Positions 2,721-13,671 of a DNA stretch of 64,000 nucleotides are shown here, in pieces (positions within the stretch are counted from its first letter, which is position 1; each line of letters starts with the position of its first letter). The notes beneath the pieces are model-generated. The model was not told where the DNA came from and ran no database searches. It saw nothing but the letters and a program-made list of their open reading frames with translations. The position numbers and the translations under genes were made by a program. The DNA is from Candidatus Latescibacterota bacterium (GTDB taxonomy: Bacteria; Latescibacterota; UBA2968), in assembly GCA_965208125.1 (NCBI GenBank), contig OZ242320.1, positions 640,001 through 704,000 on the forward strand, given 5' to 3'.

Positions 2721-4535
2721 ATGAAACGCCCTCTCGTCATCGCACTCTTTCTCGCCCTCCCACTTCGCCTCTGGGCAAATCCCCTCCAAACAGGTGCTGA
2801 AGAGGTTCCATTCAGTATCGGCGACACCCTCAATGATTTCGCCCTTGCCGACCTCAATGGCTCGCCCGTTACCCTCAGTGATTTATCTCAGAACCGCGCA
2901 CTCGTCATCATCTTCAGTTCCGTCGTCTGCCCTGCCTCGCTGAAATACGACATACACCGCACACAACTTCACGAACAATATGCCCCCAAAGGCGTACACT
3001 TGATCTCTGTAAATGCCAACTTTAACGAAACGGACAGAGACATCAAAGAACACTACGCCCAGAACCCCGTACCCTTCGATGTCCTGCGCGACCCGCACAA
3101 TAAACTCGCCGATCACCTCGGCGCGACCCACACCCCCCATGCCTTTCTCTTTGACGCCCAGCGCCGCCTGCGCTACAAGGGCGAAATCGACAACGGCTGG
3201 GGCATCCCCGAAGACACGACCTCGCGCGGTTTATGGGATGCCCTCGATGCACTGCTCGCCAACCGCGAAATTGTCAACACCAACCTGCCCAGTTTTGGCT
3301 GTGAAATCAGACGCATGCCCCGGCCAACAACTGTCGCGAACACCTCTATCCCAACATTTTATCGCGACATCCTGCCCCTGCTCCAAAACCGCTGTCAGAA
3401 CTGTCATCGCCCCGGCGGCATCGGGCGCGTACCCTTTTTCGACTACACAGAAGTACTCGCCTGGGCCTATCAGATGCGCGACTCCATCGAAGCCCGCATC
3501 ATGCCGCCCTGGAAAGCACGCCCCGAATACGGCGACTTCAAAAATTCCCGCAGACTCACAAATACCGAAATTCACACCTTCGCGCAATGGGTCAACAACG
3601 GCATGCCAGAGGGCAATCCCTCCAACCAACCCCAACCCATTGCATTTTCCAAAAGCTGGACCCTGGGCACACCCGACCTGACCCTCGAACCCGAAGCACC
3701 CTATCCACTCGAAGCTGTAGGGCGCGATGAATACCGCTGCTTTGTCTTGCCCACAAAACAGGACACGAGCAACTACGTATCGGCCATTGAAGTCCTGCCC
3801 GGAGAACGCGAAGTCGTCCACCACGTCAGCGTGTACATCGACATCTCTGGCAAAGCGAGCCTGCAACAGGAAAATTCGCCCTCGCCGGGATACCCATGCT
3901 TTGGCGGCATTGGCGTGCCCATCTACGAATCTCTGGGCGGTTGGGCACCCGGCAACACCCCCTTTGTCCTTCCAGATGGCACGGGCCGCGATTTACCGCC
4001 CAACAGCGACATCATCCTTCAGATCCACTATCACAAAATTGGTCGCGCCGTAAAAGATCATTCTCGACTGGGCATCTACTTTGCCAAAAAACCCGTACAA
4101 AAACAGCTCAGAGAAGAAGTCATCAACAGCCGCTTGCTCTTCATTCCACCCAACATCAAACGACACAGAGTAACCGGAGCACTCACCATCACCCGCGACC
4201 AGCACCTGCTCGGCATCTTGCCCCACATGCACCTGCTCGGCACAGAAATGAAAATAACCGCAACCTATCCCGACGGCACGCAACAACCCTTAATATGGGT
4301 CAAACCCTGGGACTTTAACTGGCAAGAAACCTACGTGTACAAAATACCCATCGCACTCCCGCGCGGCACACGCATCGCGCTCGAAGCCTTTTACGACAAC
4401 TCTGCCGACAATCCCCGAAATCCCAACAATCCCCCCAGGCTGGTGCGCTGGGGCGAAAAATCAACCGACGAAATGTGTACTGCATTTCTCTATGTCACGC
4501 ACGATGATGAAAACTTAACAACAGGTAAGAGGTGA
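2721..4535 (+). CDS. Secreted redoxin + cytochrome c + copper type II (PHM/DBH-like) monooxygenase fusion
   Basis: Signal peptide; redoxin (VVCPAS, GATHTPHAFLFD, YKGEID, FGCEI); heme motif CQNCH; Cu ligands VVHH, QIHYH, PHMH, DEMC. Confidence 0.85.
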   Translation: MKRPLVIALFLALPLRLWANPLQTGAEEVPFSIGDTLNDFALADLNGSPVTLSDLSQNRALVIIFSSVVCPASLKYDIHRTQLHEQYAPKGVHLISVNANFNETDRDIKEHYAQNPVPFDVLRDPHNKLADHLGATHTPHAFLFDAQRRLRYKGEIDNGWGIPEDTTSRGLWDALDALLANREIVNTNLPSFGCEIRRMPRPTTVANTSIPTFYRDILPLLQNRCQNCHRPGGIGRVPFFDYTEVLAWAYQMRDSIEARIMPPWKARPEYGDFKNSRRLTNTEIHTFAQWVNNGMPEGNPSNQPQPIAFSKSWTLGTPDLTLEPEAPYPLEAVGRDEYRCFVLPTKQDTSNYVSAIEVLPGEREVVHHVSVYIDISGKASLQQENSPSPGYPCFGGIGVPIYESLGGWAPGNTPFVLPDGTGRDLPPNSDIILQIHYHKIGRAVKDHSRLGIYFAKKPVQKQLREEVINSRLLFIPPNIKRHRVTGALTITRDQHLLGILPHMHLLGTEMKITATYPDGTQQPLIWVKPWDFNWQETYVYKIPIALPRGTRIALEAFYDNSADNPRNPNNPPRLVRWGEKSTDEMCTAFLYVTHDDENLTTGKR

Positions 4536-11246: not shown

Positions 11247-12704
11247 TCACCGTTCACAATAAGGATTGGAATTCGGATCGTACCACGCGAACAATCGCGC
11301 CAGCAAATCCGCACGAATAGCTGCAAAATCTCGATTGTCAATCAAATTGATACACTCGCCTGGATCATTTTCCAAATCGTATAATTCATGCCGCGAACCA
11401 CCATCATTATAAACGCACTTAAACCGTTCGTCCCGCACCATATATTGGGGTATAGAAGAGCGCAACCCATGCTCGGAAAACGCGGCATCGGGACCTGGCG
11501 TGTCGGGATCGCGCACGATACTGGCAAAACTCTTCGCATCCATTGTATCGCGAGCACCATCAAAATCCACCAGCGTCGTCCGCTCTGGTGCCGACAACCC
11601 ACACAACTCCGAAAGCGTGGGATATAGCCCAAAATATTCGGTCAACGCAGAAGCTATCCGACCCTCTGGAAAACGAGACGGACAACTCACGATCAAAGGC
11701 ACCTTCACCGCAGGCTCAAACATACAAAACTTCTGATACAACCCGTGCTCACCGCCCATCTCGCCGTGATCCGAAGTATATACCACAATCGTATCTTCCA
11801 CCAGCCCCAACTCCTCCAGCCCATCCAGCACGCGCCCGATACAATAATCGACAAAAGATAGATTGCCCATATACCCCGCCTTATGCGCCCGAAGACGCTT
11901 TTCACCCATACCCTGCGTCCTATCAATGCGTTGTTGTATATGCCTCGGATACTGCGAACTATCCCCCACCTCCACCAGATCTACCGATCCCGGCGGAAAC
12001 TGCTCTGCCCATTCGCGAGGCGGGTAAAAAGGCGGATGGGGCTTCATAAAACTCGCCACCAGAAAAAACGGCTGATCGCGATATTCGCGCATAAACTTCA
12101 CAGACTCGCGCGCCACAAACATATCCAGATGATCCTCGGCATCGAGCGGCGAAGCCGTACTCGAAAAATCCCACTGCGCCACATTGCCCGCCCATGGACT
12201 TGCGCCATCCCACAGCACCGACACATCGGGAAACCCACTACCCGTATCAAAAACCGAATTGAAAAACCCCTCGCCTATCGCGTGATTGGCAATCTCATTC
12301 GCATAATGCCCGACCTTTGGCCCCAAATACATCAACCAATCGTTAATCGACAAATACGACGCAAAACCGTGGTTATGTGCATCGTTAAAATGCATCTTGC
12401 CGATCAAACTCGTCAAATATCCGTGATCGGCAAAATGATGTGCCACCGTGCGATAGCGCCAATCCAGCCGATCATTATTATTAATAGCCCCCGTATTATG
12501 TGCGTACAAACCCGTCAACAACGACATACGCGAAGCCGTACACACCGGATAGGGACAATAGGCATTCTCAAACCGCACCCCACGCGCAGCCACGCGATCT
12601 ATCATCGGCGTAGGCACCGTATTATTCCCGGCACACGTCATCCAATCCGCGCGGTGCTGATCGGTCATCAAAATGAGAACATTGGGGCGATTGCTATAAT
12701 CCAA
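11247..12704 (-). CDS. Sulfatase (choline-sulfatase-like, Cys type)
   Basis: PNVLILMTDQHR, CTASR, GKMH, SDHGEM; TTG start with AGGAGG. Confidence 0.9.
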   Translation of the reverse strand: MDYSNRPNVLILMTDQHRADWMTCAGNNTVPTPMIDRVAARGVRFENAYCPYPVCTASRMSLLTGLYAHNTGAINNNDRLDWRYRTVAHHFADHGYLTSLIGKMHFNDAHNHGFASYLSINDWLMYLGPKVGHYANEIANHAIGEGFFNSVFDTGSGFPDVSVLWDGASPWAGNVAQWDFSSTASPLDAEDHLDMFVARESVKFMREYRDQPFFLVASFMKPHPPFYPPREWAEQFPPGSVDLVEVGDSSQYPRHIQQRIDRTQGMGEKRLRAHKAGYMGNLSFVDYCIGRVLDGLEELGLVEDTIVVYTSDHGEMGGEHGLYQKFCMFEPAVKVPLIVSCPSRFPEGRIASALTEYFGLYPTLSELCGLSAPERTTLVDFDGARDTMDAKSFASIVRDPDTPGPDAAFSEHGLRSSIPQYMVRDERFKCVYNDGGSRHELYDLENDPGECINLIDNRDFAAIRADLLARLFAWYDPNSNPYCER

Positions 12705-12730
12705 GATATGACCTCCTAACTCAAAAGAAC

Positions 12731-13555
12731 CTATTCCTCAGGCATCTCAACCGGCAAATCCAGCCGGTCACCCCACTCTTTCCACGATCCAATATAATTT
12801 CGGACCTTTTCATAACCCAGCAACCGCAATGCCAGGTACGTTTGGGAAGAGCGGTACCCGCCCTGTCAGTAAGGCACAATTTCCTTATCGGGCGAAATAC
12901 CCACAGCCTCGTACATCGCCCGCAATTCATCCGCTGGCTTAAACGCCCCCGTCTCATCCAGATTATTCACATACTCAACATGCACAGCACCTGGAATAGC
13001 CCCCCCGCGCGCCGCACGCACATTGCGCCCGAAATACTCATCGTCACCCCGCGTATCCAGAGGCACAACATCCTCGCGCCCCAAAAGACCATTTAAAACA
13101 TCCGCCCCCATGTGACGCCCCGGCACCGCAGATATGACAAACTCCGCGGGCGCTGCCTCCTCACAATCCGTAGTCAATCCATAACCCATGGCCGTCCAGG
13201 CATTGCATCCCCCGTCCAGCACGCGCACATCGGGATGACCCAAATATTCACAAATCCAAAAACCGCGCGACGCGCGCACCCCGGAATCATCCTCGTACCA
13301 GACCACCGTCTTATCCGTACCAATACCCCGATTGCCGAACAAATAACCGAGCATCCACATAAACGCATCAAAAGCCTGTTCGCGGGTATCGTTCAAACTG
13401 ATCGCGTAAAGATCCAGATGAAGCGCACCCGGAATATGCCCGGCAACATAAGCATGTGTCGGCCGCGTATCCACAATACAAACATCGGCAGCCCTCTCAT
13501 ACAAATCCCGCGGCGAAATCAACAACTCGGGATTCACATACCCTTTATCGCTCAT
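12731..13555 (-). CDS. Probable selenocysteine-containing tandem rhodanese (3-mercaptopyruvate/thiosulfate sulfurtransferase, SseA-like)
   Basis: GHIPGA and GAIPGA motifs; TGA at 12868-12866 lies in EIVPY-U-QGGYRS (catalytic Cys site) and the frame continues [26 protein letters not shown]... to TAG 12733-12731. Confidence 0.9.
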
Positions 13556-13671
13556 AATCACCTCCTTGCAATTTTCAAAACCCGAACCAAAAACCAACTC
13601 ATGTGTTCTATCACTTGACAATATCCCCTACCAATATCCATATTAAACGCCTAAACACCAGGAGACACTAT

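Follow-up and report, generated by a model that had tools for sequence, protein, structure and literature searches.

A predicted selenocysteine form of a tandem rhodanese in Latescibacterota, with an unusual long-range RNA structure downstream of its UGA codon

The DNA considered here is a stretch of 64,000 nucleotides (nt) from a Candidatus Latescibacterota bacterium (GenBank assembly GCA_965208125.1, contig OZ242320.1, positions 640,001 to 704,000), referred to as the window. The genome is a single contig (C1) of 5.75 Mb, on which the window corresponds to C1:640001-704000. Its minus strand carries a gene for a rhodanese with two domains in tandem, in which a TGA codon stands in frame at the catalytic position. 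Very probably, to judge from comparison with related genes and genomes, this gene encodes a cytoplasmic two-domain rhodanese of the RhdA/COG2897 type whose catalytic residue is selenocysteine (Sec, U), inserted by the SelA, SelB, SelD and tRNA-Sec of the organism itself. It can with equal confidence be regarded as a genuine selenoprotein gene of a family that has already been predicted, the unusual part being the RNA signal. Downstream of the UGA, the transcript can form a long-range helix followed by a distal hairpin (H3). This structure is well supported and unusual, and it probably serves as a split signal for selenocysteine insertion.

When open reading frames (ORFs) are listed with translation table 11, the frame ends at 12866, at the TGA (12868-12866). 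This codon is preceded by ...KEIVPY and followed by 44 in-frame sense codons (QGGYRSS...GSWKEW...). Direct reading of the minus strand thus bears out a first-pass annotation of the window, made from the sequence alone, which described an ORF ending at IVPY-TGA in a frame open for 44 more codons. The N-terminus, MSDKGY, is common to the orthologues. The Pfam model PF00581 matches two stretches of the product (E 8e-36), indicating two rhodanese domains, and the best solved relative is RhdA of A. vinelandii (1E0C), with an E-value of 1e-44 over residues 9-271.

The catalytic loop of tandem rhodaneses lies in the C-terminal domain and comprises six residues, C-X4-R, followed by S or T. In the alignment, the RhdA loop hCqthhRS (229-236) faces yUqggyRS, so that U230 lies opposite Cys230 while R235 and S236 are kept. 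The catalytic residue has number 230 in both proteins, and the earlier proposal that the UGA occupies the codon of the persulfide-forming cysteine (Cys) agrees with this alignment. The loop from U230 to R235 (U-Q-G-G-Y-R) is invariant in 13 of 13 aligned homologues. The N-terminal domain is without a catalytic Cys, as in RhdA and other tandem rhodaneses; its YEDDSGVRA, with Glu/Asp in place of the Cys, aligns to YDDEGGGWA of RhdA. An AlphaFold (AF2) model based on the 13 aligned homologues has a predicted local distance difference test score (pLDDT) of 91.0 and a predicted template modelling score (pTM) of 0.91. Compared with tandem rhodaneses by Foldseek, it gives template modelling (TM) scores of 0.81-0.83 (CysA2/CysA3, RhdA with 0.81 and 36% identity, and the T. 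thermophilus rhodanese). The tail encoded by the 44 codons supplies the catalytic loop and also the final helix and strand of the fold. Cys102, a candidate resolving cysteine, is nearly invariant among the aligned homologues. The protein differs from RhdA in the replacement of Cys by Sec and in its loop, QGGY instead of QTHH; moreover, RhdA has been studied biochemically, whereas the window protein is known from sequence alone. With the model for 3-mercaptopyruvate sulfurtransferase (SseA, NF008557), it scores 103.8 bits, below the cut-off of 250. Four other rhodanese-domain genes occur in the genome; in each the hit covers one domain and no stop interrupts it, and the window gene is the only tandem one.

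Cys230 of RhdA is the active-site residue and persulfide carrier and is needed for a redox activity linked to glutathione (PMC3458005). By the double-displacement chemistry of rhodaneses, the selenolate of the window protein would take up sulfane sulfur as an Se-S- intermediate and hand it to an acceptor. Alternatively, its role may be in redox reactions, as reported for RhdA. Selenium could be of benefit as the better leaving group with the lower pKa.

The protein as such is no novelty: predictions of a Sec-containing "rhodanese-related sulfurtransferase" (COG2897) date back to 2005, when three sequences were reported from Sargasso Sea data (PMC1088965); the family was reported again from Global Ocean Sampling (GOS) data (PMC2398784). 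A review of 2026 distinguishes five rhodanese selenoprotein forms and lists the COG2897 Sec rhodanese, with the motif UxxG, as "form 4"; it describes nearly all such selenoprotein families as uncharacterised (PMC13188914). As far as these sources go, they agree with the first-pass annotation that Sec rhodaneses have been predicted in metagenomes and are poorly characterised. The window protein resembles form 4 in having two rhodanese domains, a UGA in place of the codon for the catalytic Cys, the motif UxxG (here UQGG), widespread Cys homologues and a family made up of predicted sequences; this likeness is one of motif and of the COG2897 description, rather than of sequence comparison with the published representatives. 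An accession from the same series as theirs occurs on a protein clustered with a relative, which is no more than a hint. The gene departs from the published accounts of Sec rhodaneses in its long-range RNA structure, which does not figure in the available parts of those accounts.

The TGA is conserved across a whole lineage. A search of 61 related genomes, including the window's own, gave a match at E <= 1e-20 in 56, and 55 of the 61 hold an orthologue at 59-100% identity. The remaining matching genome (G060) has only a 32%-identical homologue, which was not counted; the five genomes without a match are 86-93% complete. In the alignment of 54 full-length orthologues, a single protein column contains 49 TGA and five TGC/TGT codons. 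Genome G007 was left out of this alignment, its hit falling into two overlapping pieces, the second of which carries the TGA; with it, TGA is found in 50 of the 55 orthologues and Cys in the other five. The check on sister genomes called for by the first-pass annotation therefore came out in favour of the UGA, and the Sec form fills one lineage of Latescibacterota-type genomes. The G007 pieces (G007:C241:5464-6284, locus L079) lie in different frames and cover residues 1-189 and 185-274, which suggests a frameshift or an assembly error.

Beyond this lineage, Cys prevails. Among named genome records, 80 loci divide into 36 with TGA and 44 with Cys, and all homologues in these records at <=59% identity are Cys forms with the same loop, CQGGYR[S/A]. 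All 40 of the more distant homologues retrieved have Cys at the TGA position; the titles of the Cys-homologue records name Binatia, Deltaproteobacteria, Poribacteria, Acidobacteriota, Nitrospinota and others. In a protein tree with 93 members, the Sec forms without exception fall into a single well-supported clade, which has 60 members (49 Sec, 11 Cys). The tree requires at least four state changes, of which the well-supported branches force just one. Given the Cys outgroups, the simplest reading is a change from Cys to Sec at the base of the lineage with some later reversions, a direction that we infer from the tree. Loss of the Sec machinery was considered as the background of the Cys forms and rejected: all five Cys-form genomes keep selA and selB above cut-off, and the switch between Sec and Cys is therefore no by-product of losing the machinery.

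The codons downstream of the TGA are under purifying selection, a further check that had been proposed. Pooled over all pairs of 20 same-genus sequences, the ratio of non-synonymous to synonymous differences per site (pN/pS) is 0.082 in the 44-codon tail, below the 0.186 of the upstream part. Between families, the pN/pS of the tail is 0.02-0.10, at synonymous distances (dS) that are saturated (dS > 1.5).

The genome contains the machinery for selenocysteine insertion, as the first-pass annotation had asked to see confirmed. A tRNA-Sec is present (70.1 bits; classified as SeC with anticodon tca by ARAGORN), together with selA (578 bits), selB (396 bits) and selD (365 bits), all above curated cut-offs. 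The selA and selB genes are adjacent, whereas selD adjoins the tRNA-Sec gene and carries an in-frame TGA of its own. At least five other selenoprotein-type genes with TGA at known Sec positions were found with a crude coding-score filter, the resulting list being incomplete. Four such sites, at G000:C1:2419765 (-), 5058587 (-), 1753143 (+) and about 1006452 (-), belong to a PrxQ/BCP-type peroxiredoxin (GGUT), an AhpC/TSA-type protein (WUPHC), a UGSC-family protein (NF041046, 154.7 bits, above its cut-off) and selD.

An M20D-type amidohydrolase gene (G000:C1:3458846-3460171, plus strand; 247-1572 of locus L160) is a separate observation. It has an in-frame TGA within the motif GHGUGHN and scores 198 bits against NCBIfam TIGR01891 (cut-off 153.75), and an orthologue with one in-frame TGA is present in 39 of 41 related genomes. 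The TGA stands at the position of the metal-ligand Cys of the amidohydrolase family. No occurrence of M20, amidohydrolase or peptidase is found in the 2026 selenoproteome review (PMC13188914), and a literature search gave nothing relevant; this amidohydrolase may represent an undescribed selenoprotein family.

The RNA downstream of the UGA was compared between 46 distinct Sec and 43 distinct Cys sequences, with positions (+n) counted from the base after the UGA. Applied de novo to the 135-column alignment of Sec sequences, RNAalifold returns the long-range helix together with H3 (+98..+103 with +111..+116) at -29.3 kcal/mol. The pairings of +12..+19 with +86..+93 and of +21..+23 with +82..+84 are present in 98-100% of the Sec sequences. 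Over the 17 pairs of helix and H3, 99.0% of the alignment cells are paired. Two-sided changes occur in 46 cells, compared with 12.8 ± 6.7 in shuffled alignments, and the covariation score of the same pairs is 0.167, compared with 0.084; none of 500 shuffles reaches either value. Sliding the partners by 1-3 columns lowers pairing to 35-53% and leaves 0-3 two-sided cells. Four pairs covary (Table 1). A trend in GC content does not explain +15:+90 and +18:+87, because the two big clades go opposite ways. On the tree, three of the four covarying pairs have changed at least three times on each side, and the fourth twice on one side and once on the other. The 128 nt of the window's own gene adopt the architecture of helix plus H3 as well, with a minimum free energy of -46.6 kcal/mol (z-score -2.47; 4 of 200 shuffles are as good).

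Covariation of single pairs is not sufficient proof of such a structure and was rejected as such. Single covarying pairs are not rare, since the sequences are related, and a comparable criterion picks out 251 of the gene's 86,461 column pairs. The case for the RNA structure therefore rests on scans at the level of whole helices. Among 353,220 possible stacks of 8 bp in the 858-column gene alignment, a single one reaches 97% pairing, namely +12..+19 with +86..+93, and it contains two covarying pairs. Nine of 356,590 possible 6-bp stacks reach 97%, and two covarying pairs are found only in H3 and in sub-windows of the long-range helix. Apart from the long-range helix and H3, no conserved helix anywhere in the gene thus has two covarying pairs.

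The structure is a property of the Sec forms. A stem of at least 5 bp at H3, whose 7-nt loop starts at +104, can form in 44 of 46 Sec sequences but in only 4 of 43 Cys sequences, in which three H3 pairs are paired at 16%, 40% and 40%. The long-range helix is likewise degraded in Cys forms, with pairing of 42% at +15:+90, 33% at +18:+87 and 9% at +19:+86. At the protein level, the H3 region reads DRL[D/E]LPV in Sec forms and DR[T/A/M/P]DLPI in Cys forms of the same phylum; the residues of the Sec forms fit the needs of the H3 stem.

As a working model, the helix would begin 11 nt after the UGA and loop out about 58 nt of coding sequence, with its 3' strand ending at +93. The 6-bp stem of H3 would follow four bases further on, which would place its loop 11 + 4 + 6 = 21 nt from the UGA when counted through the junction. 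SelB could then bind H3 at its normal working distance, inside the 16-37 nt of the published bacterial consensus. In E. coli fdhF, the structure of the selenocysteine insertion sequence (SECIS) also begins 11 nt after the UGA, the distance at which the first structured base lies here.

The consensus of the bacterial SECIS (bSECIS) requires a loop of 3-9 nt with G and then G/U near its start and places the apical loop 16-37 nt from the UGA, although some putative bacterial elements deviate from it (PMC13188914, as far as the review details them). H3 shares with this consensus a small apical loop with G[G/U] near its start and a position within the coding region 3' of the UGA, and its loop resembles the GGU, GGA and GUG loops of the other selenoprotein genes in the genome. 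In loop and stem, H3 agrees with the consensus; in distance it would agree only through the long-range helix, which by looping out the intervening bases would reduce 103 nt of sequence to about 21 nt. Literature searches (subscription papers not covered) found no paper on a natural long-range or distal bacterial SECIS. Su, Li and Gladyshev reportedly showed in 2005 that an engineered SECIS in the 3' untranslated region, a long way from the UGA, was functional in E. coli once base pairing within the RNA had drawn it near. That was an artificial construct, whereas the case in the window would be natural and lie within the coding region. We consider it likely, with moderate confidence, that the long-range helix and H3 form a working, split insertion signal. 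The further claim, that they represent a distinct class of natural bacterial SECIS acting at a distance, in which a SelB-binding hairpin 103 nt downstream is bridged by a helix, is favoured slightly less strongly.

Several observations weigh against these conclusions. The linear distance from the UGA to the H3 loop is outside the consensus range, and the hairpin loops of five other selenoprotein genes in this genome lie at about +20..+26, with GGU, GGA, GUG and AGGA as the loops of the four listed together above; the amidohydrolase gene has a second hairpin further downstream of its UGA. The ease with which single column pairs pass the covariation criterion has been mentioned. An Rfam scan of 12650-12950 with E-values up to 10 yielded three chance-level matches and no family. 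Over the 18 codons that follow the UGA, synonymous diversity is reduced just a little and not exceptionally (rank 45 of 268 windows). As to the protein, no NCBIfam model matches at its cut-off, and none for a selenoprotein does. The case is computational, both the selenium in the protein and the expression of the gene being predictions. Finally, a local hairpin, H1, has a stem of at least 5 bp in 41 of 46 Sec but only 4 of 43 Cys sequences and competes with the long-range helix for bases: its 3' arm is +12..+19, and the two are mutually exclusive for this reason.

H1 and a second local hairpin, H2, lead to the alternative that the gene encodes a selenoprotein but uses one of these hairpins as its SECIS, while the long-range helix and H3 serve mRNA stability, pausing or the like. 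Both are enriched in Sec forms, H2 with a stem of at least 5 bp in 63% of Sec but 5-9% of Cys sequences, and bacterial SECIS elements are described, in the parts of the review that treat them, as immediately downstream of the UGA (PMC13188914). The use of synonymous codons near the UGA is also restricted in Sec forms: Tyr is TAC in 39 of 39 Sec but 26 of 43 Cys sequences, and Arg is CGY in 39 of 39 but 27 of 43; at codon 7, 37 of 39 Sec forms have Ser, and 40 of 43 Cys forms have Ala. The placing of the hairpins is less suitable. The H1 loop, at +9, is closer to the UGA than the 16-37 nt of the consensus, and H2 is borderline, its loop starting 35-36 nt from the UGA, within the range, when the closing G-U pair is open; both loops are off the +20..+26 position used by the other selenoprotein genes of the genome. 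In E. coli fdhF, the +9..+11 region lies inside the mRNA channel of the ribosome when the UGA is in the A site, where the H1 loop would also sit. Although well paired, the two hairpins were rejected as the SECIS after comparisons of 26 and again of 46 sequences, as their two-sided changes do not exceed those of shuffles (263-351 of 500 shuffles do as well with 46 sequences). RNAalifold selects neither of them on the 135-nt alignment, the first 76 nt after the UGA give no signal when folded alone (z-score -0.11; 82 of 200 shuffles as good), and one clade has a disrupted H2 (at 3 of 7 pairs in locus L071). A local SECIS is therefore unlikely, and the split signal of long-range helix and H3 is preferred; H1 may have a role such as that of a folding intermediate. 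Within the looped-out part (window 12801-12826, minus strand), RNAalifold adds a very short helix of 3 bp (+40..+42 with +63..+65), the inner pair of which changes from CG (21) to GC (16), with about six changes per side on the tree.

It is far less probable that the UGA is read through without selenocysteine, by a near-cognate tRNA for Trp or Cys or under a reassigned code. Insertion of Cys would still give an active enzyme, and the computational nature of the evidence for selenium leaves some room for it. TGA is, however, the commonest stop codon in the genome and closes 788 of the 1910 open frames that are 400 codons or longer, and hence the code has not been reassigned; the complete Sec system, the other genes with TGA at known Sec positions and an RNA structure specific to the TGA forms likewise argue against this reading. 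That the gene is defective or stops at the TGA, as in the public gene calls of 229 and 231 residues, is hardly credible, since a 229-residue product would lack all that the tail supplies to the fold, the catalytic loop included, and since the TGA and an open, conserved tail persist in 50 species-level genomes across the divergence and under the selection described above.

Table 1. Positions of the features discussed (window coordinates; +n as defined in the text)
Feature	Position	Strand	Basis or remark
Whole gene, tandem rhodanese of 274 codons, Sec at codon 230	12731..13555	minus	ATG 13555-13553, TAG 12733-12731
Shine-Dalgarno-like AAGGAGGTG, 3 bases ahead of ATG	13559..13567	minus	direct sequence reading
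In-frame TGA, U230 at catalytic Cys position	12866..12868	minus	translation, orthologue alignment, RhdA alignment
Active-site loop codons U230-Q-G-G-Y-R235	12851..12868	minus	alignment with RhdA loop C230...R235 S236
Long-range helix, 5' arm, +12..+23	12843..12854	minus	pairing, covariation, RNAalifold, helix scans
Long-range helix, 3' arm, +82..+93	12773..12784	minus	inside WKEWG codons; pairing, covariation, RNAalifold, helix scans
Distal hairpin H3, +98..+116, 6-bp stem	12750..12768	minus	candidate SelB-binding element
H3 loop of 7 nt, UGGAUUU	12756-12762	minus	UGGANYU across Sec forms
Covarying pair +15:+90			CG 30, UA 15, UG 1; third positions of Arg and Glu codons
Covarying pair +18:+87			CG 22, UA 22, UG 1, CA 1; third positions of Ser and Lys codons
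Covarying pair +99:+115			CG 42, UA 3, UG 1
Covarying pair +100:+114			CG 38, AU 6, AA 2
Local hairpin H1, +2..+19, loop +9..+11	12847..12864	minus	enriched in Sec forms; no two-sided changes above shuffles
Local hairpin H2, +26..+55	12811..12840	minus	within looped-out part; less conserved
Downstream sulfatase gene	11247..12704	minus	co-oriented; TTG start at 12704 after AGGAGG; PF00884

The rhodanese gene is followed after 26 bases by the co-oriented sulfatase gene (Pfam match at E 1e-46) and then by a likewise co-oriented penicillin-amidase gene (PF01804, E 1e-188), an arrangement that the first-pass annotation had given correctly, as the ORF listing and the Pfam matches confirm. No terminator-like site was found in the 26-base gap, and the rhodanese and sulfatase genes are probably co-transcribed. 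Upstream lies a divergent gene of the glucose-1-phosphate thymidylyltransferase type. The wider surroundings are catabolic, with an amidase, short-chain dehydrogenases, a second sulfatase and a CoA-transferase, and the gene neighbourhood contains no sulfur or selenium pathway genes.

The tie to the sulfatase and acylase genes implied by the earlier annotation does not extend beyond the closest relatives. Neighbourhoods were sampled at 19 of the 80 loci. Among these, only L080, the nearest relative sampled, shows the order rhodanese-sulfatase-amidase; a genome of the same genus (L086) has the rhodanese gene directly next to the amidase gene without a sulfatase, and other genera have different neighbours. 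Sulfatase genes number at least 150 in the genome: of 193 candidates, 150 were scored, and every one of these matched. A functional link between rhodanese, sulfatase and amidase was rejected as unsupported for these reasons. The sulfatase is probably an incidental neighbour and not a conserved partner, and it says little about the function of the rhodanese, because the order is not conserved and sulfatases are so numerous.

Two other observations concern the window at large. Besides the family of the neighbouring sulfatase, it has two further sulfatase genes. At 2721-4532 (plus strand), an ORF of 604 residues begins with a redoxin (AhpC/TSA) domain and also weakly matches the two halves of the copper type II ascorbate-dependent monooxygenase fold, an unusual pairing.

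In public databases, the truncated product of the window belongs to a cluster of 216 members, all of which are cut at the TGA. Sec forms are listed there as proteins of 229 or 231 residues under the names sulfurtransferase, rhodanese-like or hypothetical. Several members of the cluster are filed under Gemmatimonadota; the genome search puts them in the same order as the window. For a group of phylum level, the annotation is thus wrong at the rhodanese gene, because the public records describe catalytically dead proteins of 229 or 231 residues.

The gene is a well-supported, lineage-wide addition to a selenoprotein family that has not been studied at the bench. If the split signal is real, it would be a natural exception to the textbook rule that the SECIS lies directly behind the UGA, and its distal position would account for the failure of SECIS-based finders and gene callers to recognise it or place it correctly in Sec rhodaneses. 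The Sec and Cys orthologues, all of them in genomes with Sec machinery, form a natural pair for asking what selenium contributes to an enzyme that carries a persulfide.

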